A stretch of 64,000 nt of DNA, from the NCBI GenBank assembly GCA_965230935.1, contig OZ246400.1, forward strand, positions 173,705 through 237,704, in the 5' to 3' direction. Below the pieces are notes generated by a model. The model was not told the DNA's origin. It did not search any database and was given only the letters and a program-made list of their open reading frames with translations. This document shows, in pieces, positions 12,656 to 49,052 of the stretch. Position numbers and translations under genes: made by a program. This DNA is from an uncultured Gammaproteobacteria bacterium. GTDB lineage: Bacteria; Patescibacteriota; Patescibacteriia; Magasanikbacterales; JBBTQS01. Each line of letters begins with the position of its first letter. The first letter of the stretch is position 1.

Positions 12656-13219
12656 ATGAACAAAACAAAGATTGCACTTTCCGGAATTGCTGGTTCGTTT
12701 TCAGAAGAAGCTGCTCGCATTTATGCAAGCAGAGCTGGTTTTGAACCTGAGTGCGTTTTTGCCGTTGATATGGAAGGGGTTTTGCAATCTATTGATCAAG
12801 ATAAAGTTGAACTTGGTATTTTCCCAGTAGTAAACTCTCGAGGAGGGTTGGTACAAAGTGCATTCCATGCCATGGGAAAGCACACCTTTACTGTTCACGA
12901 TGAATTGTGGATGGAGGTGTACCAATGTTTATTGGTACAAAAGGGGACGACGACGGAGCAGATTACCAAGATCGCAAGTCATCCTCAAGCAATTGCCCAG
13001 TGTGAGCGGCATATTCGCCAGCATCATCCTGATGCTGAGCTTATCTACTGGGATGACACAGCAAAAGCTGCTCAGGATTTGGCACAGGGCGAATTTGACG
13101 CAACCACTGCAGTGATTGCACCATCACGTTCAGCACAGATTTATGATTTAGAAATTTTGGAAAAAGGAATTCAGGATAACCACCCCAATCTTACTACATT
13201 TATTGTGGTAAAAGCATAA
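12656..13219 (+). CDS. prephenate dehydratase (PDT domain only, no ACT domain)
   Basis: PDT-domain pattern (IALSGIAGSFSEEAA...PVVNSRGG...SHPQAIAQC). The ORF stops before any ACT domain. Confidence 0.7.
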   Translation: MNKTKIALSGIAGSFSEEAARIYASRAGFEPECVFAVDMEGVLQSIDQDKVELGIFPVVNSRGGLVQSAFHAMGKHTFTVHDELWMEVYQCLLVQKGTTTEQITKIASHPQAIAQCERHIRQHHPDAELIYWDDTAKAAQDLAQGEFDATTAVIAPSRSAQIYDLEILEKGIQDNHPNLTTFIVVKA

Positions 13220-13253
13220 TCAAAAAAACACCACGAGTGATGTTCTTTTGAAT

Positions 13254-13272
13254 GCCGACGTAATGCGTCGGC
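13254..13272. terminator. bidirectional hairpin between convergent genes 12656-13219 and 13305-14228
   Basis: gccgacg-taatg-cgtcggc perfect 7-bp stem. On the minus strand it is followed by a U-rich run. Confidence 0.6.
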
Positions 13273-13304
13273 TCGTTGTGTTGTTGGTGTGTGTCCTCAG
13301 ACGA

Positions 13305-14228
13305 TCAGGCGAACACCGAGGCGCCGCGGAACTGACGCATGACCCCACCTTTGAGGAAGGACAGATCACGCGACAAACGCAGTAGGTGCGCCAACTGCCG
13401 CTCAGTCTTGGTGCTCATCTTCTTGTGGTGTCGCTCCCAGAGCTCGGGCTGGGTGGCCGGATCAGGCACCTGGTAGCGCTGATCCTCGTGAGCCGGCAAC
13501 ACCGGAGCGATGCATTCGCCAAAGTGTTCGACCAAGGCCGCCAAAGGGAACACCTCCTCCACGCCCATGAGGTGGTAGTGAACCTCCTCGTCCTTGACCG
13601 GCGAGTAGCCGATCACCGCGGTATGCGCACGTTTGTACTCGTCCTTGGGCATGCCGGCCAGGTGCGGGGGGAACCCGCCCATGTCCAGCAGCGTCGGGTT
13701 GTGCCAGATGGCCATGGTGTTGGCAATGCGCCCCTCGAGAATCGACTCGGTGAGCTCGTTGATCGCCAGACCGGTAACCATGGCACCCTGCTCGAGCGCT
13801 GCCCACATGGCGTCGAAGTTCTCCTGCGTCAGGTACGGTTGAGCTTCTGTAGACGCGATCATGGAGAACTCACACCCATGCTGCAGCTGGATCCGCACTC
13901 CCTGATTGAGGATCGCGCAGTACAGGTCACCATAGGTGACGATGTGAACGGCCACATCAGCGACTCCGCTTTGCTTCATGGCATCGCACAGCGCCGCGTG
14001 TGTCTCGCCGCAGTCACTCTTGGCGTACCCATGTGCAGCCCAGACCAGCACGTCGACTCGCTTAAGGCGACTCAGCTGGTTGGCAAGGGTAAGCTGGTTG
14101 GCAGCACGGATCATCTCTACGACCTGTGCACACCGCTTCGGGACATCTTCTGCCTTCGTGGCAAAAGTGCGTAGGACAAGTCCTACATTGCGCACGCGCA
14201 TATTGCGCGGCTTGACCGAATTGGTCAT
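13305..14228 (-). CDS. hypothetical protein, high-GC cassette gene D
   Basis: 307-aa ORF with GGAGG SD 9 nt before ATG 14228. Body is strongly GC-rich with GC-rich codons. No domain recognised. Confidence 0.75.
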   Translation of the reverse strand: MTNSVKPRNMRVRNVGLVLRTFATKAEDVPKRCAQVVEMIRAANQLTLANQLSRLKRVDVLVWAAHGYAKSDCGETHAALCDAMKQSGVADVAVHIVTYGDLYCAILNQGVRIQLQHGCEFSMIASTEAQPYLTQENFDAMWAALEQGAMVTGLAINELTESILEGRIANTMAIWHNPTLLDMGGFPPHLAGMPKDEYKRAHTAVIGYSPVKDEEVHYHLMGVEEVFPLAALVEHFGECIAPVLPAHEDQRYQVPDPATQPELWERHHKKMSTKTERQLAHLLRLSRDLSFLKGGVMRQFRGASVFA

Positions 14229-14381
14229 TGGTTTCCTCCATAGTACTTCCCCAACGCATCAGGGAAATACGCAGTTGGCTTCTCACCGTACGACACTAGT
14301 CAGTTATCTGTCTTCTCCCTAACGCATCAGGAAAAATCAAGAACTGAGGGAACCGCGCCCCTACCGCTTGGCAAGACAAAA

Positions 14382-14409
14382 AGTATAGCAAAATTACTCC
14401 TTTTGTCAA
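14382..14409 (-). promoter_or_regulatory. sigma70-like promoter for gene D (minus strand: TTGACA-16-TATACT)
   Basis: Minus-strand reading ctaTTGACAaaaggagtaattttgcTATACTttt. About 145-nt leader to ATG 14228. Confidence 0.6.
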
Positions 14410-14487
14410 TAGTTTTCACAAGAAAGTTCTTTGTATTTCAGAAAATATGGTAGACTGCAGACAGTAATTTCAGCCAAATATTAGGAT

Positions 14488-16146
14488 ATGCCAATTAAAC
14501 ACAGCACGTCAGCGCTTACTAAAGAGCAGCACGAAACGCAAGATGCTCGGTATGCCCAAAATCATCAGTACGACTACATCATTGTTGGGACAGGAAATAC
14601 ATCATTGACTGTTGGGGCCTTGCTTGCCCGATCTGGTGCACGGGTATGTATGCTTGAGGCACACGATATACCTGGAGGTTATGCCCAAACCTTTACGATG
14701 GGTAAGTATAAATTTTGCGCACAAATTCATTACACTTGGGGATGTGCACCAGGAGGAAAGATTTACAAATTTTTGAAAAAACTTGGATTGGAAAAAGACG
14801 TCTCATGGGAGCTATATGATCGCGAGGGATATGATCATATGGTGATGCCTGATGGTACACAGGTTAAAATTCCGTATGGATGGGATCGACTCGTCGAAAA
14901 TGTAGCAACAGCCTATCCGCATGAGCGAGAGGGGATGGAAAAGTTTGTGGGTATTGCTCGAATGATTCGAGGACAGATGGCACATTTTCCATCGCGTGGC
15001 GAGCCGTGGTATCGATACGTTACAAAGGGATGGAGATTGACTGGATTGGCACGTTATCGTAACAAAACTCTTCAAGATGTATTTGATGAGTGTGGGCTTG
15101 GCAAAGAAGCACGCGCAGTGCTTAGTGCCAATGCCGGAGATTTGATGTCACCTCCAAAGGAGCTAAGCTTTTTACTCTACATCGCATTATTTGGTGGATA
15201 TAACACTGGCGCGTATTATCCAACTCATGATTTTAAACACTATATTGATCGAGTTGCTTCTGTTATTACAGATAGTCCAGGATGTCACATTTATTATGAA
15301 ACTGAGGCGGTAAAAATTGATGTACAGGGAAATCAAGCTACTGCAGTACACACACGCAATGGCAAAACATTTACGGCACCGACTATTATTTGTGGTATGG
15401 ATCCACAAGCTGCTGCACACGAACTGATCGGGTGGGATAAGGTTCCACAAGGGTATCAGAAGAAATTATCATATTCATATTGTCCGTCCGGTATGACAAT
15501 GTATGTAGGATTCAAACCTGGATTTGACTTGCGTGAGTATGGTTTTGGGAAGTTTAATATTTGGCACTTAGAGCAATGGGATATGAATGCTTCTTGGAAG
15601 CAACAGCTTTCCGGTGATTTTAGTGCCCCGTGGATGTTTATGTCCACACCTACGCTGCATAGTGATAAAAGCGGGAATGCACCACAAGATTCTCAGATTT
15701 TAGAGATTGCATCACTTACTGATTTTGATTCGTTCAAAAAAGCGCAGGATGCAAGTTATGGTGAGTATTCAAAAAAGAAAATGGCGCTCATGGAACGATT
15801 AATTGATTTGGTACAGGAAAAATATATTCCAAACATGCGAGATCATATCGCGCTTAAGTTTGCTGGCACGCCGGTAACAAATTTTGATTTTGTAAAAGCA
15901 CCATACGGCACAGCATATGGTGCCGCAATGATTCCATCCCAAACAGGGCTAAACCGTTTGCAAGCATCGACCCCGTGGAAAAATTTGTATTGGAGTAATC
16001 AATCAGCTGGATATCCCGGGATGTATGGTACGGTCAGTACCGGTATGTCTTTGTATACGACGCTAACCGGCGATCATTTTTTGGATGAGATGGAACAAAA
16101 GAGTGATGATGAGATGATTGCTGCAATTATGACAGAGATTCGATAA
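14488..16146 (+). CDS. FAD-dependent oxidoreductase, phytoene desaturase/CrtI-like family
   Basis: N-terminal dinucleotide-binding fold (YDYIIVGTGNTSLTVGALLARSGARVCMLEAHDIPGG). Length and C-terminal pattern match the CrtI/amine-oxidase family. Confidence 0.8.
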   Translation: MPIKHSTSALTKEQHETQDARYAQNHQYDYIIVGTGNTSLTVGALLARSGARVCMLEAHDIPGGYAQTFTMGKYKFCAQIHYTWGCAPGGKIYKFLKKLGLEKDVSWELYDREGYDHMVMPDGTQVKIPYGWDRLVENVATAYPHEREGMEKFVGIARMIRGQMAHFPSRGEPWYRYVTKGWRLTGLARYRNKTLQDVFDECGLGKEARAVLSANAGDLMSPPKELSFLLYIALFGGYNTGAYYPTHDFKHYIDRVASVITDSPGCHIYYETEAVKIDVQGNQATAVHTRNGKTFTAPTIICGMDPQAAAHELIGWDKVPQGYQKKLSYSYCPSGMTMYVGFKPGFDLREYGFGKFNIWHLEQWDMNASWKQQLSGDFSAPWMFMSTPTLHSDKSGNAPQDSQILEIASLTDFDSFKKAQDASYGEYSKKKMALMERLIDLVQEKYIPNMRDHIALKFAGTPVTNFDFVKAPYGTAYGAAMIPSQTGLNRLQASTPWKNLYWSNQSAGYPGMYGTVSTGMSLYTTLTGDHFLDEMEQKSDDEMIAAIMTEIR

Positions 16147-17410
16147 TGCCGGTGGCTACTCGTTTGCCATTCCAGAGTGCTCCTTCAGTCCACGGACTAT
16201 TGAGATAATCCCCACAGAGCCAAACATTGCGTTGTCCTTGCTCGTGAGTCAAAAATTCATGTGCATTGGTCAGCAATTCTTGGTTAAATTTTGGCATGGC
16301 ATGTGTCCAGCGCTGTAGATCATGTGGAGTGAGATCATCTTTACTTACCCAAGGGCACACTTTTGGAAATTCTTCTAGTACCGCTTTCCAAATTTCATCA
16401 TCAGATTTGGTGAGCATCTCTTGAGCATACCCATCATGGAGCCACGTGCATAACAGTTGTTTGCCGTTGCTACGTAAGTCATCACCTTTCATCACCTCAT
16501 TAGAGATACCGGAGAATTTTGTATTTTGAACGTATGGAATCCACGTAATTGAGGTTTTGGGCAAACTATCTGCTGCGACCTGAAACGCAACACTTACTGA
16601 GCTTGCATATTCAGTTTGCTCAAGTAGTTGTTGCTGGATTGGTGTTTTCTTTTTAAGGATTTGATTGCTTATCGGAGCAGTGGTGGCGAGTACCACAGTA
16701 TCGTATTGCTCTGCATCACGCTCAGTCTGAACAGTCCACATATCACCTTGTAAGGTGATTGAATGTACTGGCGTATTGGTTCGCACATCAAGATGTTTAG
16801 CAAGTGCTTCTGGTAAAACACTCATTCCTCCAGCGATACGATGGAGGTCCCACGCTGTCTTGTCTTTTTTAACTGATTGCATCACTGCGACAAAAGCTGC
16901 GGCACTTGCTTCAGTTGCCCGATGGAATTGATATGCAGCAGTAAATGGATCAACTATATAATCTGCTATTTCCTGATTCAGATGCGTGATCGCATAGTCG
17001 TACGCATTATCAGTATTGTACTCCATTGCCGTTTCAAGATCTCGAAAATCAGCATCTTCACTCATTTTGCGATAGGTATTTGCTAAAACAAGGTTTGATT
17101 TAAGAGAAAGTGTTTTGTGTACTGGTTTGATAGAACCATTTTTAAAAATTCCATAGGAGCAAAAATCCATTGGCATCCAGTCCAGATTAAGTTCATCAAC
17201 ATACTCCAACATATTGGTGTAATTGGGAATCAGGTGGGTAGCACCAATATCAAAAATAAGCCCATCTTTTTCGCGCGAACGCATGCGTCCGCCAACTGTG
17301 GAATCAGCTTCAAACACTGTGACGTCTTGGCCGGCCTTTTTAAGTTCATATGCGCAAACGAGTCCGGCAATACCTGCGCCTATAATTGCAATGCGAGGAG
17401 TTATTTTCAT
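16127..17410 (-). CDS. FAD-dependent amine oxidase / protoporphyrinogen-oxidase-like protein
   Basis: RIAIIGAGIAGLVCAYELKKAGQDVTVFEADSTVGGR Rossmann motif. Convergent with, and overlapping, the previous gene by 20 nt. Confidence 0.8.
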   Translation of the reverse strand: MKITPRIAIIGAGIAGLVCAYELKKAGQDVTVFEADSTVGGRMRSREKDGLIFDIGATHLIPNYTNMLEYVDELNLDWMPMDFCSYGIFKNGSIKPVHKTLSLKSNLVLANTYRKMSEDADFRDLETAMEYNTDNAYDYAITHLNQEIADYIVDPFTAAYQFHRATEASAAAFVAVMQSVKKDKTAWDLHRIAGGMSVLPEALAKHLDVRTNTPVHSITLQGDMWTVQTERDAEQYDTVVLATTAPISNQILKKKTPIQQQLLEQTEYASSVSVAFQVAADSLPKTSITWIPYVQNTKFSGISNEVMKGDDLRSNGKQLLCTWLHDGYAQEMLTKSDDEIWKAVLEEFPKVCPWVSKDDLTPHDLQRWTHAMPKFNQELLTNAHEFLTHEQGQRNVWLCGDYLNSPWTEGALWNGKRVATGIIESLS

Positions 17411-17450
17411 ACGTAATTGGTTGTGCAGATCATACCACGCTCACCATCTC

Positions 17451-17479
17451 TTGACGAGGTTATGTAAGTTTTATACACT
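17451..17479 (+). promoter_or_regulatory. sigma70-like promoter for gene A (TTGACG-17-TACACT)
   Basis: cTTGACGaggttatgtaagttttaTACACTg, followed by a leader hairpin and SD. Confidence 0.6.
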
Positions 17480-17508
17480 GCAATCTCCCACTCATCAACA
17501 ATGGGAGA

Positions 17509-18576
17509 TTGGAGGTCGCTTTGAGCACACCTGAGCCTGCGGGCAAACCTGCGGTCCGGATTGTCCAGGCCGTGGACCAACCGAACATCAGCAAAGCGAT
17601 CCACGCATTGCTGTTGTTCTTCGAGGAGCGTAACTGGGTCGACAACGACGCCATGATCCTGGAGCTCGGTCGTGCGCTGCACGAGGGTCATCAGTGTTGG
17701 GCACCGGTGTACGATCGGGACGCGGTCGGGACGCGGCTCATCTACGTACTGCCGTTCGACGGAGCGCAAGGACAGCGTCGCAGCGCCACGCGCTGCGTCT
17801 GGGTGTCCACCGCACGAGCGGATCTGATGGTCGAGCACATGATCGAACTTACCACCGGGCCATACGGTCGTGGTCGTAAGGCGCCGTCGGAGGGCATGTT
17901 CATCCAGGACACCGCAGCAACCGATCACCTCAACGAGTGTATCGGTCGCAAGATCGGTCGTCCGTGGGAGGTCGCTGACATTGCGTATACCGCGTCGCAG
18001 ACTTTGGCCGCGTGGTGGGCGGAGCAGCACCCGGTTCCGGCGACGCGCCGACCGGGACGCCGCGAGCGACTCAGTGAAGAGTTGTTGGGACACGTCAGGG
18101 AAGCACTGCGTTCGTCACAGCAGTTCGCCGTGGCCCCACCGCGTGGGTCGAGTGGCATGGGTTTTTACGTCCTGCCGATCGACCAGTGGACGCTCCAGCG
18201 CTGCATCGGGATAACGCTCAACGGCCACGCTGCCGAGGATTTGTCCCGGGATCTCGCCGGTCGGATTCGTTTGCACCTTGGCGACCGTTGGGAGCTGGGT
18301 GGCGACGAGGGTCCGGTGGAGGCCGAGTCCGATGTCATGAGCGTGAGTTCGGACGAGATCGAGTTCGAGCTCGAGTTCGACGACGATGCGGATGACGACG
18401 CGGACGACGAGAACGTCGCAGAGGCCGTGGTAGTTTCGCAGGTTGTCTCCGGTGACGAGCCGACGCAGGAGGCCACGCCGAGTGCCGGCACTGCTCCCAC
18501 TGACGAGCAGATGTCCACCCCAGCTGAGGACGGCAAAGGGCGCTCCGAGGGCAACCCTCCGGTTGGCCCGGCGTAA
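17509..18576 (+). CDS. hypothetical protein with acidic C-terminal tail, high-GC cassette gene A
   Basis: 355-aa ORF. Likely real start is TTG 17521, 5 nt after GGAGG (17511-17515). GC-rich codons. C-terminal EFELEFDDDADDDADDE low-complexity region. No domain recognised. Confidence 0.75.
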   Translation: MEVALSTPEPAGKPAVRIVQAVDQPNISKAIHALLLFFEERNWVDNDAMILELGRALHEGHQCWAPVYDRDAVGTRLIYVLPFDGAQGQRRSATRCVWVSTARADLMVEHMIELTTGPYGRGRKAPSEGMFIQDTAATDHLNECIGRKIGRPWEVADIAYTASQTLAAWWAEQHPVPATRRPGRRERLSEELLGHVREALRSSQQFAVAPPRGSSGMGFYVLPIDQWTLQRCIGITLNGHAAEDLSRDLAGRIRLHLGDRWELGGDEGPVEAESDVMSVSSDEIEFELEFDDDADDDADDENVAEAVVVSQVVSGDEPTQEATPSAGTAPTDEQMSTPAEDGKGRSEGNPPVGPA

Positions 18577-18608
18577 CTTTAGCCATCACACAACACACAC
18601 AACATGAA

Positions 18609-18637
18609 GAACGCGCAAACAAGCGCGCTCTTTGTAT
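18609..18637 (+). terminator. hairpin terminator after gene A
   Basis: gaacgcgc-aaacaa-gcgcgctc stem followed by tttgtattct. Confidence 0.65.
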
Positions 18638-18710
18638 TCTGGACAAAAGTAATTTGTTATAGTATGTATAAGATACCTGCATAAGAGATAGTGCAGGAAG
18701 AGGAGATCAG

Positions 18711-19478
18711 ATGTCACATGACGAATCGGCAGCGCCCCCGCAAGTGCCGATTGAGGAGGCCATTGTTGGGTTTTGCGCCCACATTGGATTGGTCGCCCGG
18801 AGTTCGTTTGGCGAGGAGTTGGTTGCTGCGGTGTGCCGAAAGGCCGTCTGCGCGATCGACATACAACCAGACTGGGATCAACGGGCAGTCTTTCGCGTAC
18901 CAGCAAAGCACGACCGTGTCTCGGGCGTGTTCGCAGTGATCTTGCTCGACGACGCGCTGAGCGAGTCGCTGACCAATGACTTCAATGAGCTTCTGCTGGG
19001 CTATGGCGGCTCAGGAGAAGGAGATGTTGATCACTGGAGTCAGACGACCAAGCTCACCCGCGCGGTTCGTGGGCTCAAGAGCTGGTTCAAGGACAGAGGC
19101 ATCCGTCTGGAGGTTGGGGATATCAACAGCTTTGTCACCGCCTGGGAAACTGGTGAGGTGAGAGAGTGGTCGTTTGATCAAGGTCGTGGAGCACCGGTGA
19201 TTGCGTTCGTCGTGCGTCCGTACGATGCCCCCAGAGACGAACGACGAAACAGTGAAGTTTGCGTCGAGGTGCACTGGGGTGACAGGCTCAACCACGAGTT
19301 GACTGCTGGTCTGAACCAGATGATCGACGATGCGTTGGGCCCCGATCTTCACTGGGACGTTCGGCGAACCACGGATGAGGACGCGTCTACGTCTGCCCAT
19401 TTTGCTGCACAGGAGGTGGCAGCCATCGGGGGGCAACAGCGGGAGCAACCGCGCCGTCGCAGCGCTGTGGGCGAGTAA
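18711..19478 (+). CDS. hypothetical protein, high-GC cassette gene B
   Basis: 255-aa ORF. ATG preceded by GGAAGAGGAG SD. GC-rich codons. No domain recognised. Confidence 0.75.
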   Translation: MSHDESAAPPQVPIEEAIVGFCAHIGLVARSSFGEELVAAVCRKAVCAIDIQPDWDQRAVFRVPAKHDRVSGVFAVILLDDALSESLTNDFNELLLGYGGSGEGDVDHWSQTTKLTRAVRGLKSWFKDRGIRLEVGDINSFVTAWETGEVREWSFDQGRGAPVIAFVVRPYDAPRDERRNSEVCVEVHWGDRLNHELTAGLNQMIDDALGPDLHWDVRRTTDEDASTSAHFAAQEVAAIGGQQREQPRRRSAVGE

Positions 19479-19502
19479 CTCAACACAACACACAACACAG
19501 GG

Positions 19503-19529
19503 CCTCCGCTACAACTTAGTGGAGGTTTT
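19503..19529 (+). terminator. hairpin terminator after gene B
   Basis: cctccgcta-caact-tagtggagg 9-bp stem followed by TTTT. Confidence 0.7.
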
Positions 19530-19537
19530 GTAATATC

Positions 19538-19566
19538 TTGACAGGAAAGCTGTCGCATAGTATAGT
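19538..19566 (+). promoter_or_regulatory. consensus sigma70 promoter for gene C (TTGACA-17-TATAGT)
   Basis: cTTGACAggaaagctgtcgcatagTATAGTc. Confidence 0.7.
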
Positions 19567-19590
19567 CTCTTCTCTCCTCATTGCATTGCT

Positions 19591-20238
19591 TTGATTAACT
19601 ACCGGGGAGGGAAGGGGGCTAACACCTTGAGTGAAGATTGGCGCGGCTTTGTCGCGGCACGTGAGGAAGATCGCGTTGCTGCGCTTGGTGCCGCAATGTC
19701 TCATCTGATGCAGCGAGTGGGGTTCATTGACCCCAAATCGCCTGGGGACAAGAAGTCTCGGAAGGCGCTTGCACAGATGGGGTCGGCATTGGCTGCCATG
19801 ATCAGTGCCGCCCGTTCCGGTGACGTGTACATCACGGTGCTGCAGGGCGAGCAGACAGGTTCCGACGTGCTGATCCAGGTGTTGCCATTCGCCCCGACTA
19901 TGATCGGCGATGGCGACGATGCCGCGTTGGATCTGAGCATGCCGCGTCGCACTCGCGAGCGGCTGGTCATGGTCTACACTCTCTCGCCGAACGGCACTGA
20001 CCGTGGCTTCGAGTTCTCTCTGGATCTCACCACCAGCTTCAACACAGGTGTGCAGCAGGTCATCGACGTGCAGCACACATCACTCCTGCAACGAGGTTTG
20101 AGGCCCAGGGAGCGATCCGAGTCCCCCCCGGCACCAAATGGCTGGTTGACCTGGGAGGACTGGCTCGAGGAGTCGGCACGACGCGCCGAGCAGTCGGGGA
20201 CTGGAGGCGAGGAGGTCGAGGAGTCCTCAGGCTCCTGA
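19591..20238 (+). CDS. hypothetical protein, high-GC cassette gene C
   Basis: ORF from TTG 19591. More likely start is TTG 19627, 8 nt after the GGGGAGGGAAGGGGG SD-like run. GC-rich codons. No domain recognised. Confidence 0.7.
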   Translation: MINYRGGKGANTLSEDWRGFVAAREEDRVAALGAAMSHLMQRVGFIDPKSPGDKKSRKALAQMGSALAAMISAARSGDVYITVLQGEQTGSDVLIQVLPFAPTMIGDGDDAALDLSMPRRTRERLVMVYTLSPNGTDRGFEFSLDLTTSFNTGVQQVIDVQHTSLLQRGLRPRERSESPPAPNGWLTWEDWLEESARRAEQSGTGGEEVEESSGS

Positions 20239-20272
20239 TCACTCACAACAACAACCACACCACAACGGCAGG

Positions 20273-20297
20273 CCCGGCGTATACGCGACGGGTTTTC
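20273..20297 (+). terminator. hairpin terminator after gene C
   Basis: cccggcgtatacgcgacggg (contains the 10-nt palindrome gcgtatacgc) followed by TTTT. Confidence 0.6.
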
Positions 20298-20331
20298 CAA
20301 TTCTAAAGAGAAAATATGCTATGATGCCATT

Positions 20332-21087
20332 ATGTTAACAACAGCAGAAAGAAAATCAATTATTCAGCTTCATCAGAAAAAGTTTCGTGATCAGCGGGGC
20401 GAATTTATTGTTGAAGGTGAAAAAGGAGTATTAGAGGTACTACAATCCTCGTATAAAATTCTTGATCTGATAATCGAGGAGTCCCACAAAGGAAAGTTTG
20501 AATCTATTGAAGCATTAGCAATCGAACAGAAGATTAGTCCAACATGGTGTGGGAAAAAAGACGCTGCTTTGATTAAGACCACTGATACATTTCCTGGTGT
20601 GTTGGCGGTAGTGGCAAAGTCGACTTCCCACAAAAAACAGGACGATAGAGTCATCCTTATGCTCGATGCCATTGCTGATCCTGGAAATCTTGGCACTATT
20701 ATCCGCAGTGCGCATTGGTTTGGGATTACAACTATTATCCTAAGTGATCATTGTGTAGATCCATATAATCCCAAAGTGGTTCGTGCGAGTATGGGTTCGC
20801 TCTTTCATGTTGATTTGGTTCAACCTGATTTTCCTGAAGAGTTTATCAAATCGTATCAGGATGCTGGGTATCATATTGTGGTACTTGATGCTAATGGAAA
20901 GACACCAAGCAAAATGAGCGCAAATAAAAAATCTTTATATATTTTGGGAAGTGAATCACACGGGGTTCGAGATTCTTTTGCAACACTTGCCGATGAGTCT
21001 GTTGCTATTGCTGGAGATGGGTCAGCTGAATCTTTGAATGTTGCAGTTGCCGCTGGTATTTTACTGTATCATGTTGCGAGTCGGTAG
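20332..21087 (+). CDS. TrmH/SpoU-family RNA 2'-O-methyltransferase (RlmB-like)
   Basis: SpoU methylase motifs (LDAIADPGNLGTIIRSAHWFG; SESHGV; AIAGDGSAESLNVAVAAGILLY) plus an N-terminal substrate-binding region. Confidence 0.85.
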   Translation: MLTTAERKSIIQLHQKKFRDQRGEFIVEGEKGVLEVLQSSYKILDLIIEESHKGKFESIEALAIEQKISPTWCGKKDAALIKTTDTFPGVLAVVAKSTSHKKQDDRVILMLDAIADPGNLGTIIRSAHWFGITTIILSDHCVDPYNPKVVRASMGSLFHVDLVQPDFPEEFIKSYQDAGYHIVVLDANGKTPSKMSANKKSLYILGSESHGVRDSFATLADESVAIAGDGSAESLNVAVAAGILLYHVASR

Positions 21088-21821: not shown

Positions 21822-21912
21822 ATACCCTTATCATACGCGTAAGTGTTCAGCTTGAAAAGCGCGTATGCAAACACGCCATCGGTTGGGATGGGTGTTGCGT
21901 TGTGGGTGTTGG

Positions 21913-22239
21913 TTAAAAATATGCGGCCAGATGGTCGAGGAGTTCTGGGTTTGCACGCAGGTGTGCCAAGGTTTGGTCACGACGAGCCGTTGTGGTGTAC
22001 CACGTCAAAAAAGACTTTACCGCCATGGTGTACGGGCTGGTTTCGGGTCGTGAAACATGCGCGTCAAGGCACGCTTGAATCCAATCACCAAGCAAATCCA
22101 TTTGTGTTGCCGTAAGTCTACGAACAACAAATCGCGTGCTATATGGGTACAAGTCGAGAACGCGATGCCAGTGCAACTTTGGTGTACTCTTTACCAGCAC
22201 TGTGATAAGGGGTTGGTGCACGGGTTGGAGTCGTCGCAT
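21913..22239 (-). CDS. hypothetical small protein (uncertain)
   Basis: 108-aa ORF directly downstream of the Cys-rich lipoprotein, overlapping it in another frame. The C-terminal 60 aa read protein-like. The start may be an internal Met. Confidence 0.3.
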   Translation of the reverse strand: MRRLQPVHQPLITVLVKSTPKLHWHRVLDLYPYSTRFVVRRLTATQMDLLGDWIQACLDAHVSRPETSPYTMAVKSFLTWYTTTARRDQTLAHLRANPELLDHLAAYF

Positions 22240-22496
22240 GGTACATCAGCGATTTGGTCACTGATCACACTGACACATGACTGGCTCAGTGGATCCCACC
22301 AGGTGTCGATGCATGGGGTCGGGCTCACACAGATCGTTTCAGCCGGCGAGGGTTCACTTGTCGGCGCAATAGCCTGCCTGTGCGTGCATGGTTCTGATTC
22401 AATAGTAGTATGTTCATCTGACCCGACTTCACATCCCAACAATAAGATACTTAAGATGATTTGTGGTTTCATATGCTCCTTGTCCAACATCAGCAA
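22191..22496 (-). CDS. small secreted Cys-rich lipoprotein sharing the DDxNPCT motif
   Basis: Probable start at Met 22472 (MKPQIILSILLLGC lipobox; AAGGAG upstream). Mature part has 8 Cys and ends ...VPCDDSNPCTNPLSQCW. Signal-peptide codons are AT-rich; the Cys-rich part is GC-rich. Confidence 0.6.
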   Translation of the reverse strand: MLMLDKEHMKPQIILSILLLGCEVGSDEHTTIESEPCTHRQAIAPTSEPSPAETICVSPTPCIDTWWDPLSQSCVSVISDQIADVPCDDSNPCTNPLSQCW

Positions 22497-41164: not shown

Positions 41165-41205
41165 AAAAAAGACGAATCTGTGTTATAGATTCGTCTTTAA
41201 TTTTA
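41165..41205 (+). terminator. rho-independent terminator of atp operon
   Basis: aaagacgaatc-tgtgttata-gattcgtcttt perfect 11-bp stem followed by a T-run. Confidence 0.8.
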
Positions 41206-41213
41206 GCTAAATA

Positions 41214-41242
41214 TTGACAAATATTCAATTTTAATGTATTGT
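41214..41242 (+). promoter_or_regulatory. sigma70-like promoter for Cys-rich lipoprotein gene (TTGACA-17-TATTGT)
   Basis: aTTGACAaatattcaattttaatgTATTGTg. Followed by a GC-rich structured leader (ggccacagtggcc palindrome; gccatg...catggc stem). Confidence 0.55.
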
Positions 41243-41337
41243 GCTACCTTATAGGAGGGCCACAGTGGCCAGCCATGCGGCGATGATTCCATGGCATGAA
41301 GCTGTGGGTTCTTTGACAATTAGAGGGGGTTCGAAAG

Positions 41338-43989
41338 ATGAATCGAATAGCTATTACCCTTGCCTTTGCCGCCCTGATCGCAGGGTGTGCAGACGCATCG
41401 GTAGATCCAGGAACGGTCGAGTGTTTCGGCGAGGCCTGTGCCAAGCCGGACGCCGATACGACCGGTGGTGGGGAGGTAGTCCCTCCGGATACCACACCGG
41501 ATGTCGGCGACACCGGTGATGACAGTGATGATCCGGATGTGCTCGAGACCGACGACGGTGCTGAGGTGGACGACATCAATGACGCCGATACGGCCGTCGA
41601 GGATGTGGACATCGACGTTCCGGACGAGGGTGATGATGGCGACACGCCGGATGTGCCCGAGACCAACGACGGTGCTGAGGTGGACGACACCGAGGACACC
41701 GACGAGACGACGGACACGGACGAGACCGATACGCCTGTTGATCCCTGCGATGGGGTCGACTGCACGGACGACAACCCGTGCACCATCGACGAGACGTGCG
41801 TGGATGGCGAGTGTGTCAGCTCGCCGGTCGTCTGCAACGATGACAATCCGTGTACGGACGATGCGTGCGTCGTGATTGAAGGTGGGTGCGTGTATACCCC
41901 GAACGCAGTGCTGTGTGAGGATGGCGACCCGTGTACGCTGGAGGACGCCTGTGTGGACGGTTCCTGTGCGCCTGGCGCACCGAAGATCTGCCAGGATGCC
42001 AACTTCTGCACCGTGGATGCGTGCGACCCGGTTTCCGGGGAGTGTGCCTTCGTGGTCGTGCCCGAGCCCTGCGATGATGGGAACGAGTGTACGCAGGAGG
42101 AGGTGTGTCAGCAGGACGCCACGTGTGGCAACGGGGCGGAAGTGGAGTGCGCAGACGAAGATCCGTGCACGAACGACAGCTGCAATCCGGACTCGGGTTG
42201 TGTGTTTGCTCAGAAGGAGTGCGACGACGAAGATCCGTGCACCGTTGACTTGTGCGAGACCGAGTCTGGCGAGTGTACCTTCGTGATCGTGCCGGAGTGC
42301 AAATGCGCTCCTGAGCAGTGTACGGACGACAACCCGTGCACGTCGGACGTGTGCAACCCGCTCGACGGGTCCTGCTCCTTCCCGTTCAACACGGAGCCGT
42401 GTGACGATGGCGACCCGTGTACGTTGGAGGACGCCTGTGCGGACGGTTCCTGTGCGCCTGGCGCGCCCAAGTCGTGTATCAGTGAGAACATCTGCCTGAG
42501 CGCGAGCTGCAATCCGGAGACGGGGAGCTGTGAGCTGAGTGAGAACACCGCGCCGTGTGACGATGGCGATGCGTGCACCCAGGAAGATGTGTGTAACGAA
42601 GGTTCGTGCGCTGGCGTGCTGATGGTGTGTACGGACGACAACCCGTGCACCGAAGGCGACACGTGCAATGGCGGCACTTGCGCCGCCGGGGAAGCCAAGG
42701 TCTGCGAAGACGGTAACCCCTGCACGGTTGGTGCGTGCGACCCGGATTCCGGGGAGTGCGCGTTTTCCCCGGACAACGGGGGAAGCTGCACGGACGACAA
42801 CCCGTGCACCAACGACGTCTGCCAGGACGGGGAGTGTGTGAGCGAGGCCAACAGCGCCTGCTGCACTGAAGACGCGCAGTGCGCTGACGAGCTGGCCTGT
42901 ACGCAGGACCAGTGCGTGGAGCAGTTGTGTAAGAACTTCGTCATTCCGGGCACCGGGCATTGCCTTATCGAGGAGGTGTGTATTCCGGAAGGGGTGGTCA
43001 ATTCGGCCAACGACTGTGAGGCTTGCACCTCGATGGTCAACCCCAACGGGTGGAGCCCGCTTGTGGATGGGAGCGATTGCGAAGATGGACAGGCGTGCAC
43101 CGAAGGCGACACGTGCAATGGCGGCACTTGCGCCGCCGGGGAAGCCAAGGTCTGCGAAGACGGTAACCCCTGCACGGTTGGTGCGTGCGACCCGGATTCC
43201 GGGGAGTGCGCGTTTTCCCCGGACAACGGGGGAAGCTGCACGGACGACAACCCGTGCACCAACGACGTCTGCCAGGACGGGGAGTGTGTGAGTACCACAG
43301 TCGCGTGCGACGACGGTCTCCCATGCACTCTGGATTCGTGTGACGAGGCGGGCGAGTGTCAGTACGAGCCCAAGACGTGTGACGACTCCAATCCGTGCAC
43401 CATCGATTCGTGCGAGCAGAGCACCGGCGATTGCGTAGGTGAGCTTGCTACGGTGAAGTTCCAGGACATCACCGCGGCCAAGTGCCTCACGCTTCCGCCG
43501 TTCATGCCATGGTTCGCGTTTGATGACTTCGATGACTCGGAGTCGCCCAATTCGAACATCTGGCACTGCGGTCACGACTGCCTGAACATCGACGCGGCCT
43601 GCCAGTCGCAAGTCGGTACGATCCGTCCCGGGTTTACGCACAACGGGGACCAGCACACCTTTACCATCGACCCGCAAGCAGCGTTTCCGGAACTTGACGG
43701 CATGACCATCTCGGCCGCCTTCACGTTCCGCAGGCAAGGGGTAACGCCCAACGACCTGACGCCGCCTGAGGTTGTGGTGAAGCAGACCATCGACGGAATC
43801 GAAACGGTGCTTGCCTCGCAGTTCCTGGGCAAATCACCGAACAACAATTTCGATTTCCTGGTCGAGTTCCTGGTTGGTGATGGTTTGGTCACGGTGTACT
43901 ACACGCCCAACGACTTCATCCCCGACTCGGAACGCACGCTGCACATCATGCTCGACTCGAACATCGAGCTGCAGCCTGTGTGTCCCTGA
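41338..43989 (+). CDS. large Cys-rich tandem-repeat lipoprotein (CxDDNPCTxDxC repeats, slime-mold/Dicty-CTDC-like)
   Basis: Lipoprotein signal (MNRIAITLAFAALIAGC), acidic D/E/T-rich linker, then roughly 20-25 repeats of about 22-25 aa with 4 Cys each (e.g. CTDDNPCTIDETCVDGECV). C-terminal roughly 170-aa Cys-poor domain. GC-rich codons. High-GC cassette gene E. Confidence 0.85.
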   Translation: MNRIAITLAFAALIAGCADASVDPGTVECFGEACAKPDADTTGGGEVVPPDTTPDVGDTGDDSDDPDVLETDDGAEVDDINDADTAVEDVDIDVPDEGDDGDTPDVPETNDGAEVDDTEDTDETTDTDETDTPVDPCDGVDCTDDNPCTIDETCVDGECVSSPVVCNDDNPCTDDACVVIEGGCVYTPNAVLCEDGDPCTLEDACVDGSCAPGAPKICQDANFCTVDACDPVSGECAFVVVPEPCDDGNECTQEEVCQQDATCGNGAEVECADEDPCTNDSCNPDSGCVFAQKECDDEDPCTVDLCETESGECTFVIVPECKCAPEQCTDDNPCTSDVCNPLDGSCSFPFNTEPCDDGDPCTLEDACADGSCAPGAPKSCISENICLSASCNPETGSCELSENTAPCDDGDACTQEDVCNEGSCAGVLMVCTDDNPCTEGDTCNGGTCAAGEAKVCEDGNPCTVGACDPDSGECAFSPDNGGSCTDDNPCTNDVCQDGECVSEANSACCTEDAQCADELACTQDQCVEQLCKNFVIPGTGHCLIEEVCIPEGVVNSANDCEACTSMVNPNGWSPLVDGSDCEDGQACTEGDTCNGGTCAAGEAKVCEDGNPCTVGACDPDSGECAFSPDNGGSCTDDNPCTNDVCQDGECVSTTVACDDGLPCTLDSCDEAGECQYEPKTCDDSNPCTIDSCEQSTGDCVGELATVKFQDITAAKCLTLPPFMPWFAFDDFDDSESPNSNIWHCGHDCLNIDAACQSQVGTIRPGFTHNGDQHTFTIDPQAAFPELDGMTISAAFTFRRQGVTPNDLTPPEVVVKQTIDGIETVLASQFLGKSPNNNFDFLVEFLVGDGLVTVYYTPNDFIPDSERTLHIMLDSNIELQPVCP
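42644..42842 (+). repeat. 199-bp perfect direct repeat, copy 1 (inside Cys-rich lipoprotein gene)
   Basis: Identical base-for-base to 43094-43292. Encodes CTEGDTCNGGTCAAGEAKVCEDGNPCTVGACDPDSGECAFSPDNGGSCTDDNPCTNDVCQDGECVS. Confidence 0.95.
43094..43292 (+). repeat. 199-bp perfect direct repeat, copy 2
   Basis: Identical to 42644-42842. The 450-nt offset is exactly 150 codons, so recombination between copies would be in-frame. Confidence 0.95.
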
Positions 43990-44020
43990 CCCTCAAGACA
44001 ACAACAAACCTACAACAGTA

Positions 44021-44055
44021 AGAGCTCTCCTTTCCAGGAGGGCTCTTTCTATTTA
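44021..44055 (+). terminator. hairpin terminator after Cys-rich lipoprotein gene
   Basis: agagctctcc-tttcca-ggagggctct 10-bp stem followed by ttctatttatt. Confidence 0.7.
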
Positions 44056-49031: not shown

Positions 49032-49052
49032 AACACAACAAATACAAAAACA

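Follow-up and report, generated by a model that had tools for sequence, protein, structure and literature searches.

What are five conspicuously GC-rich genes doing in an otherwise AT-leaning bacterial chromosome, each carrying expression signals of its own? The question was raised by a 64,000-nucleotide stretch of DNA (the window) from a member of the Patescibacteriota, or candidate phyla radiation (CPR), covering positions 173,705 to 237,704 of contig OZ246400.1 (assembly GCA_965230935.1). An earlier note on this stretch had described the genes, referred to here as A to E, as mobile, donor-derived, or engineered single-gene cassettes wrapped in a common set of promoter, leader, 3' box, and terminator. 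The results presented below pointed to natural, moron-like autonomous accessory units that form a distinct GC-rich, Shine-Dalgarno-dependent expression class in a CPR chromosome, a reading that we adopt tentatively and hold to be slightly short of an even bet. The analysis of this genome covered the window and a further 18 kb (82 kb in total). All promoter, terminator, and Shine-Dalgarno calls are computational predictions, with promoters being consensus matches only.

Composition and expression signals of the five units

A sliding GC profile of the window detected three islands with values of 0.55 to 0.64 (13.0 to 14.5, 17.5 to 20.3, and 41.3 to 44.0 kb) above a background of ∼0.43. The islands contained open reading frame (ORF) D on the minus strand (13305 to 14228; GC content, 0.61; GC content at third codon positions [GC3], 0.76) and, on the plus strand, ORFs A (17521 to 18576; 0.64 and 0.75, computed from the start at 17509 in the earlier note), B (18711 to 19478; 0.59 and 0.65), C (19627 to 20238; 0.62 and 0.72, computed from the earlier start at 19591), and E (41338 to 43989; 0.62 and 0.76). 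The other window ORFs of at least 150 amino acids (aa) (n = ∼45) had GC contents of 0.37 to 0.46 and GC3 values of 0.31 to 0.48, with zero overlap with the range of 0.65 to 0.76 in the five, and the described difference from AT-leaning surroundings was thus fully confirmed. Codons ending in G and codons ending in C were both raised in every codon family, with a nearly identical profile across the five genes, and proteins A to C were low in lysine and high in arginine, as in high-GC proteomes. The GC-rich blocks stopped at the ORF borders, and AT-leaning spacers were present even between A, B, and C. The order of GC content by codon position (GC3 > GC1 > GC2) and the filling of each island exactly by one ORF indicated that these are real genes. 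Codon bias due to high expression was rejected as an explanation, as GC3 was ordinary in the window's atp, rpoD, and oxidative-stress genes, and a MazF-type (ACA-cutting) design was rejected because ACA was not depleted in the ORFs.

A large difference between the units and the host genes was detected in the predicted pairing of the ribosome-binding site with 16S rRNA. Shine-Dalgarno duplex energies ranged from −9.1 to −12.3 kcal/mol in the five units, compared to a host median of +0.2 kcal/mol; 4 of 39 host genes reached −6 kcal/mol, and 35 of the 39 in the window were without a Shine-Dalgarno site. The unit sites were GGAGG for D (14235 to 14239, minus strand) and, on the plus strand, GGAGG for A (17511 to 17515), GAGGAG for B (18700 to 18705), a G-rich site for C (19604 to 19618), and GAGGGGG for E (41323 to 41329). 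For A and C, the likely true starts are TTG codons at 17521 and 19627, rather than 17509 and 19591. Each TTG lies 5 to 8 nucleotides (nt) past a strong Shine-Dalgarno site; the annotation of a Logan assembly gave a product of 203 aa for C. Positions −25 to +35 relative to the start codon were more structured in the unit genes, and for A, C, and D this segment was more stable than in all 38 host genes compared. Host genes without a Shine-Dalgarno site included those at 20332, 30603, 36837, and 44085, and the location of several starts, such as those at 20332 and 44085, within ∼7 to 10 nt of a −10-like box was suggestive of leaderless or very-short-leader mRNAs.

Near-consensus promoters, claimed for every unit, were found for three of them. 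Matches of 11/12 were present upstream of D (TTGACA, 16-nt spacer, TATACT; 14382 to 14409, minus strand) and C (TTGACA, 17-nt spacer, TATAGT; 19538 to 19566, plus strand) and a match of 10/12 upstream of E (TTGACA, 17-nt spacer, TATTGT; 41214 to 41242, plus strand), where it lay just downstream of the atpC terminator (41168 to 41198). The promoter-like site of A was weak (9/12; TTGACG, 17-nt spacer, TACACT; 17451 to 17479, plus strand), and no match of 9/12 or better was detected upstream of B. As the promoter of the atp operon was equally good (11/12), the unit promoters appeared to be ordinary host-type promoters, of the sigma-70 type. The leader hairpins of the earlier description were present but did not exceed those of dinucleotide shuffles; a motif search detected no common 5' motif in the five leaders, and none matched an RNA family in Rfam, so that significant hairpins or a common leader motif were rejected as a feature of the five units.

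The 3' ends were far more uniform. In 5/5 ORFs, a CAACA/ACAAC-rich run consisting of A and C only (the A/C box; 13 to 23 nt) began 3 to 10 nt past the stop codon and was followed by a hairpin and a T-tract, with a stop-to-hairpin distance of 22 to 32 nt; the claim of a box and terminator after every unit was borne out. The boxes were ACACACACCAACAACACAAC for D (13275 to 13294, minus strand) and, on the plus strand, CACACAACACACACAACA for A (18587 to 18604), CAACACAACACACAACACA for B (19481 to 19499), CACAACAACAACCACACCACAAC for C (20244 to 20266), and ACAACAACAAACCTACAACA, which includes one T, for E (43998 to 44017). The terminator of D was a bidirectional hairpin (13254 to 13272) held in common with a convergent prephenate dehydratase gene; hairpins with T-tracts were located on the plus strand at 18604 to 18635 (A), 19497 to 19531 (B), and 20267 to 20298 (C), and E had a 12-bp stem with a T-tract (44020 to 44047, plus strand). 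In folding predictions, the boxes were single stranded and the terminators folded. By its composition, the box holds neither start nor stop codons, has no ribosome-binding motif, and cannot pair with itself. No other terminator of the window had such a box, and none was found in the further 18 kb. The sole other 3' flank of comparable A/C richness was the 21-nt proS-mreB spacer (49032 to 49052; AAACACAACAAATACAAAAACA), which is without a terminator. As this spacer shows, A/C-rich tracts also occur outside the GC-rich units; it may be an unstructured element that enhances Shine-Dalgarno-independent initiation.

A function of the box as a thermodynamic insulator was rejected, as the terminators folded at ≥0.9 with random spacers and the native box was marginally better. 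Read most simply, the box is an inert spacer that holds the terminating ribosome off the terminator; the small effect on the predicted hairpin makes a sequence-specific partner plausible. Overall, composition and signals supported the described distinction between autonomous single-gene units and the tightly packed operons of the host. The units are located at operon boundaries, and their neighbors are dnaG, rpoD, atp, aminoacyl-tRNA synthetase, and other housekeeping genes.

The products of A (351 aa, with an acidic tail), B (255 aa), and C (203 aa, with an acidic tail) are ORFans. Searches of 5.8 billion protein clusters and 1.84 billion representatives recovered only the proteins themselves, and no match was found in Pfam, PHROGs, NCBIfam, or PADLOC. 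Proteins A to D were not significantly similar to one another, and paralogy was rejected; only a loose, recurring hhhVLPxD-like motif was visible by eye, and a single-sequence AlphaFold2 model of B was uninformative (pLDDT of 37). E is an 883-aa lipoprotein with a lipobox (LIAGC), an acidic linker, and at least nine Dictyostelium-type Cys repeats (Pfam PF00526; E value, 1e-35). Its gene contains a perfect 199-nt direct duplication (42644 to 42842 and 43094 to 43292, spaced 450 nt), which indicates a very recent repeat expansion in a surface lipoprotein gene. No relatives of E were found in viral contigs or plasmids. F (21867 to 22472, minus strand; GC content, ∼0.50), probably a sixth unit in a state of decay, has an AAGGAG Shine-Dalgarno site, a 93-aa lipoprotein ORF (22191 to 22472) with one E-like (Dictyostelium-like) Cys repeat, a second ORF (21913 to 22239) overlapping the first out of frame, and a 3' end comprising an interrupted A/C-rich box (21881 to 21912) and a hairpin (21867 to 21898). 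Both the GC content and the frame break of F suggest decay. Judged by their lipoprotein features, E and F are plausibly surface proteins of the CPR cell itself.

The gene D family and its leader RNA

Gene D could be followed across genomes. Its 307-aa product is a GT-A-fold glycosyltransferase-like protein with the Rossmann-like alpha/beta fold of that class, and no sequence match to it was found in Pfam, NCBIfam, or the PDB. More than 50 homologues were detected. Two residues, D72 and D101, were invariant. Every named homologue came from Patescibacteria, and those of other sources carried no name; some D loci in the genome collection were labeled as other taxa, yet their contexts were low in GC. 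We regard the family as restricted to Patescibacteria. Together with the compact gene content, the presence of D pointed to a Patescibacteria (CPR) bacterium as the source of the window.

The composition of D was compared with that of its neighbors (∼10 kb) in 36 to 39 loci of the genome collection. D was the gene with the highest GC3 of its neighborhood in 21 of 36 loci, compared to an expectation of 4.5 (Wilcoxon P = 2e-6), with a mean excess of +0.12 and a maximum of +0.37. The excess was also present in GC-rich hosts, with a GC3 of 0.90 versus 0.65 in locus L027. The Shine-Dalgarno sites of D homologues were stronger than those of their neighbors (P = 9e-6), and most homologues had a terminator of their own at most a few tens of bases downstream. 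Ribosomal protein S2, EF-Ts, and L31 in locus L005 were at or below the GC3 typical of the locus, with D being the highest, indicating that high-expression codon bias does not explain D. A conserved antisense ORF was rejected as the cause of the GC richness, as antisense ORFs were no longer than after synonymous shuffling. Two or three tandem D paralogues were observed in some CPR genomes (L016, 2282 to 4280; L017, 1683 to 4850; L036, 6001 to 7735), and these copies were without a GC3 excess, unlike single-copy D genes.

The age of this composition was apparent from loci with conserved gene order. In four genomes with a conserved order upstream of D, the neighbors were 47 to 67% identical and D had a GC3 excess of +0.12 to +0.32 in all four. 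For the pairs L029/L032, L027/L031, and L020/L024, synonymous divergence (dS) was >1.8 or undefined for the neighbors, i.e., saturated, but was 0.7 to 1.2 for D, and the GC3 of D was 0.68 to 0.87 in both members. With the neighbors saturated and D still GC rich, there has been ample time for amelioration, and something maintains GC at the synonymous sites of D. These results indicated that, at least for D, the composition is ancient and actively maintained and is not the fading mark of a recent import. The proposal of uptake from a high-GC partner organism was thus refuted for D, by a Patescibacteria-only family holding its GC3 in conserved gene order. The earlier suggestion that homologues of the same composition would point to amino acid bias only was half right: the D homologues did have the same composition, but the cause was at the codon level.

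Upstream regions of D homologues were found to share a motif (GAU-[hairpin]-CUACCAA-YUGGAGG) in a leader of ∼60 nt, consisting of a 4-bp closing helix whose 3' strand takes in the first Gs of the Shine-Dalgarno site, GAU and CUACCAA junctions, and, enclosed by the junctions, a variable hairpin. In searches of 648 kb with covariance models, made first from 9 and later from 16 sequences, all 19 matches were located directly 5' of D genes, one of them being an additional copy at the L020 end. Examples were L031 (5908 to 5967), L020 (5930 to 5988 and 7101 to 7160), L037 (5915 to 5985), and L006 (3270 to 3335). Standard pairs made up 92% of the leader pairs, compared to ≤54% in slid controls, and double-sided compensatory cells numbered 17 versus 4.7 in shuffles (0/500 shuffles as high), in an alignment that was fitted to the model and whose pair counts hence lean towards structure. 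Compensatory helices read by hand were clear (CCAG/CUGG, CCAA/UUGG, CAGA/UCUG, and UCCAU/AUGGA). No family in Rfam 15 matched the leader, even at an E value of ≤10. From its sequence, this leader is a candidate new riboswitch-like element that would occlude the Shine-Dalgarno site to control translation. It resembles the preQ1-II, SAM-II, and guanidine-III riboswitches in the predicted sequestration of the ribosome-binding site by a closing helix and differs from known translational riboswitches in its lack of an Rfam 15 match. The leader of D in the window (14229 to 14381, minus strand) is longer, at ∼150 nt, with two copies of CCUGAUGCGUURGGGA (14248 to 14267 and 14316 to 14335). GAU and UGGAGG were present in it and the central hairpin was missing; a P1-less remnant of the family motif is possible.

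Mobility and comparison with known systems

The units showed none of the sequence marks of mobility for which the window was searched. There were no flanking repeats or attC-like sites, with the A/C box being the only repeat common to the units; no integrase was encoded in the window or in 10 kb on either side, and no recombinase was found; and visual inspection of the 3' flanks showed no attC cores (RYYYAAC/GTTRRRY), with the hairpins being mutually unrelated. An integron or repeat-bounded cassette was rejected on these grounds. A phage, plasmid, or defense origin was rejected in view of no PHROG, PADLOC, IMG/VR, or PLSDB match, and a PLSDB search specifically with D and E was also negative. 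The claim of mobility was therefore not sustained by repeats, integrase, attC-like sites, or relatives on viral contigs or plasmids.

Gene A follows two convergent, phytoene desaturase-like amine-oxidase/flavin adenine dinucleotide (FAD) genes (14488 to 16146, plus strand, and 16127 to 17410, minus strand) with a 20-nt 3' overlap. A search with the amine-oxidase protein recovered 36 loci with 36 to 61% identity. No empty site could be compared, as the relatives of the pair were too distant (45 to 61% identity) and gene order was lost past the pair. The pair is conserved in many genomes, including high-GC ones that are probably not CPR (L065 to L073). At L049/L076, the position of gene A right after the oxidase pair was occupied by an unrelated secreted-protein gene (13105 to 13677) with a GC3 of 0.86, its own promoter, a Shine-Dalgarno site, and two terminators, and the junction is a possible hot spot for units of this type. 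In L052 (1429 to 9940), a related CPR-like contig, eight copies of a ∼32- to 56-nt intergenic repeat (containing AATTCGATCCAAAATTCCGGATTCCGGATCTGACCCCA) bracketed single genes, including two GC-rich paralogous cassettes, in a layout like that of a cassette array. Strong outliers with high GC3 were rare overall; outside the D family, they numbered ∼9 among 411 ORFs and were without Pfam domains. In a second, overlapping set of outliers (excess of >0.12), 4 of 11 were led by a Shine-Dalgarno site, compared to ∼8 to 11% of ORFs with little or no excess. Separately, two consecutive noncoding stretches with a GC content of ∼0.5 were observed ∼1 to 2 kb to the left of the window start (L046, 6953 to 7700, minus strand). 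Both are preceded by near-consensus promoters (TTGACA..TATAGT and TTGACA..TAGTAT), a terminator closes the first, and they look like structured RNA genes such as those of RNase P, SRP, 6S, or tmRNA.

Several known systems were considered as counterparts. By definition, a moron is one gene equipped with a promoter and a factor-independent terminator of its own, with a deviant GC content and often no assigned function (PMC3594210). The units resembled phage morons of the HK97 gene 15 type (Juhala/Hendrix), which likewise are single genes with their own signals, of deviant GC content, between functional blocks; predicted promoters (weak for A and below 9/12 for B), factor-independent terminators (5/5), and deviant composition were found here. 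Morons, however, sit in phages or prophages, whereas the units sit in a cellular chromosome between housekeeping operons, and the units additionally have a Shine-Dalgarno site in a host mostly without one, a common A/C box, and, for D, an ancient and maintained composition. The units also resembled genomic islets and ORFans acquired by transfer in their atypical GC content, GC3, and codon usage, in their orphan or lineage-restricted proteins, and in their location at operon borders. Acquired bacterial DNA is usually AT richer than its host, the opposite of the units, which differ further from islets in that the compositional blocks coincide with ORF borders, that no donor was found, and that D contradicts the amelioration model. 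A series such as A-B-C is reminiscent of integron cassettes, which are short single-ORF units in series with a hairpin element after each. Integron cassettes have attC cores (RYYYAAC and GTTRRRY) and an integrase and are usually promoterless; the units are without the first two, their hairpins are unconserved, and they have promoters of their own.

For the translation signals and the 3' box, the closest comparisons lay elsewhere. In the Bacteroidota and some cyanobacteria, most genes are without a Shine-Dalgarno site and a few strong sites are kept, implying two modes of initiation. The Shine-Dalgarno-led minority described here differs in being also GC rich, single gene, and marked at the 3' end, and to our knowledge a link between such a minority and GC-rich single-gene units has not been described. 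The A-rich ARN and CA motif sites (AAnAAnAA) of Hfq/Crc and the CA-repeat translational enhancers are single-stranded A/C-rich tracts. The boxes of C and E contain AACAACAA, and that of D has a near match. Unlike Hfq/Crc sites, the unit box is located between stop codon and terminator instead of at the ribosome-binding site, and the (CA)n/CAACA boxes of A and B are unlike ARN.

Origin of the units and possible consequences for CPR biology

The tidy order of the parts, from promoter and ribosome-binding site through ORF and unstructured spacer to terminator, is like that of a synthetic-biology design, and an artifact or construct, whether a chimeric assembly or a synthetic cassette, had to be considered. 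The exact unit proteins were encoded on contigs of two ENA assemblies from two environmental samples (ERZ930061 and ERZ930065; project PRJEB17505), on Logan assemblies of two runs, and on a 931-kb contig attributed to NCBI and ENA. Fetched contigs, from two samples and several assemblers, matched the window with 100% identity through the points where GC-rich DNA gives way to AT-leaning DNA, and such independent identical assemblies exclude a construct or chimera. Moreover, the GC-rich ORFs alternate with AT-leaning spacers that carry host-like signals, and D has >50 natural homologues with the same syndrome. The description of the units as engineered was refuted by these results, and the chance that they are artifacts is negligible. 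The main rival is a recent and repeated import from one unsampled, CPR-related donor or vehicle with a GC content of ∼60% (a CPR lineage, plasmid, or phage) that used Shine-Dalgarno sites and A/C-box terminators. Under this scenario, the units would be genuine morons or islets still short of amelioration. The nearly identical codon usage, 3' box, and Shine-Dalgarno style of all five units would be accounted for by such a source, as would the high-GC-proteome amino acid makeup of A to C, an ORFan status typical of mobile-element genes, the appearance of F as an ameliorating and decaying copy, the different GC-rich gene at the same junction in L049, the GC-rich paralogous cassettes of L052 flanked by a 56-nt repeat, and the transfers of D among CPR hosts of different GC content. 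Arguing against it, no homologue was found for A, B, or C in any of the collections searched, viral contigs and plasmids among them, or for E in viral contigs and plasmids, and there are neither flanking repeats nor a recombinase. The GC enrichment does not reach past the ORFs, the stretches separating A, B, and C being AT leaning; the syndrome of D is ancient and is kept in conserved gene order, and D exceeds host GC3 even in the GC-rich host of L027. The more specific idea of a high-GC donor outside the CPR, as judged by closest homologues and amelioration, was contradicted by D and, for A, B, and C, was unsupported, since their lack of a homologue in the searched collections leaves no candidate donor. 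We consider the main rival, recent import of the units from one unsampled CPR-related source, somewhat unlikely.

Two other explanations address the maintenance of the composition or the foreign style of the signals. The units could be recombination hot spots subject to GC-biased gene conversion, with the G/T-rich strand of the box being Chi-like or preferred by RecA and allele replacement driving GC upwards. CPR bacteria are thought to be naturally competent, RecA/Chi favor GT-rich DNA, and recombining bacterial genes have raised GC3; in addition, the disagreement between D and neighbor identities in conserved-order loci suggests allele swapping, and the GC3 excess of D is directional whatever the host GC content. 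This explanation is improbable, given that the excess stops at start and stop codons with no decay into the flanks, that the effect of +0.3 to 0.4 in GC3 is far above that reported for bacterial biased gene conversion, and that the box is absent from other lineages in which D is equally GC rich. Alternatively, the genes could be tuned for a GC-rich, Shine-Dalgarno-using partner cell of an episymbiont, with DNA or mRNA being delivered to it as with T-DNA, which would fit the departure of every expression signal of the units from the style of the CPR genome and the retention of the syndrome by D across the phylum. We know of no precedent for such delivery, and no transfer machinery or border sequences were evident. 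The conserved D leader, with its predicted sequestration of the ribosome-binding site, implies cis regulation in the cell that makes the RNA, and E and F are lipoproteins with bacterial lipoboxes that plausibly reside on the CPR cell's own surface; tuning for a partner is thus very improbable.

The interpretation that we prefer, natural GC-rich units expressed through Shine-Dalgarno pairing, has its own difficulties. A GC3 excess was missing from about a third of the D loci, and among other CPR genes the link between Shine-Dalgarno strength and GC3 was weak (rho of −0.11). The match of the window D leader to the leader model was poor (7.7 bits; E value of 1.6, at 14226 to 14267). The A/C box was not found in other CPR lineages or 3' of D homologues, where there were short A-rich spacers only, so that it appears confined to this lineage, and the gain in predicted terminator folding that it brings is marginal. 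The intermediate GC content and frameshift of F look like amelioration or decay of an import. In the D tree, close relatives occurred in hosts of very different GC content and D identities disagreed with those of the neighbors, indicating that lateral exchange of D within the CPR occurs. The lack of homologues, of A to C in all collections searched and of E in viral contigs and plasmids, leaves room for a recent acquisition from an unsampled donor. Finally, the force behind the GC richness is a matter of candidates and not a settled cause; these are selection on mRNA structure or stability, selection for a particular decoding regime, and biased gene conversion at often-exchanged loci.

If the units are such an expression class, their operation might be as follows. 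GC-rich mRNAs, being structured at the start codon, would not be usable by the default mode of initiation on unstructured, AU-rich leaders and would need pairing of a Shine-Dalgarno site with 16S rRNA. Through this dependence, the genes could be controlled one by one by leader folds that mask their ribosome-binding sites, with the D family as an example. The promoter and terminator would insulate each unit from its neighbors, and the A/C box would most likely clear the ribosome from the terminator hairpin, provide a single-stranded platform for a lineage-specific factor, or both. The GC richness, at least for D, would be held by selection or biased conversion at synonymous sites. That A to C, E, and F share the cause seen for D is something we infer, as we do the dependence of structured mRNAs on Shine-Dalgarno sites and any function of the A/C box. 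A bolder extension is that the Patescibacteria have two translation regimes, one for the AT-leaning bulk without Shine-Dalgarno sites and one for a small, insulated, GC-rich class that is kept so by synonymous-site selection over very long times (the D family throughout the phylum and A to C, E, and F in this lineage) and individually switched through access to the ribosome-binding site, with the D leader being riboswitch-like and, in this lineage, a 3' A/C box marking the class and binding a dedicated factor; as a whole, this extension is doubtful.

Atypical composition is routinely read as a sign of recent transfer, and the D family breaks this rule across a phylum. It stands far above the GC content of its genomes, has a reduced synonymous divergence next to saturated neighbors, and carries a ribosome-binding site that the host genome otherwise leaves unused. 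Two leads follow from these results, a candidate riboswitch class upstream of a CPR-specific glycosyltransferase-like gene and a defined element of the 3' untranslated region, the A/C box. If the finding generalizes, methods of genomic island prediction would mislabel such genes in CPR genomes, and CPR bacteria would have a separate, controllable translation channel for a few genes that are probably related to the cell surface or the host.

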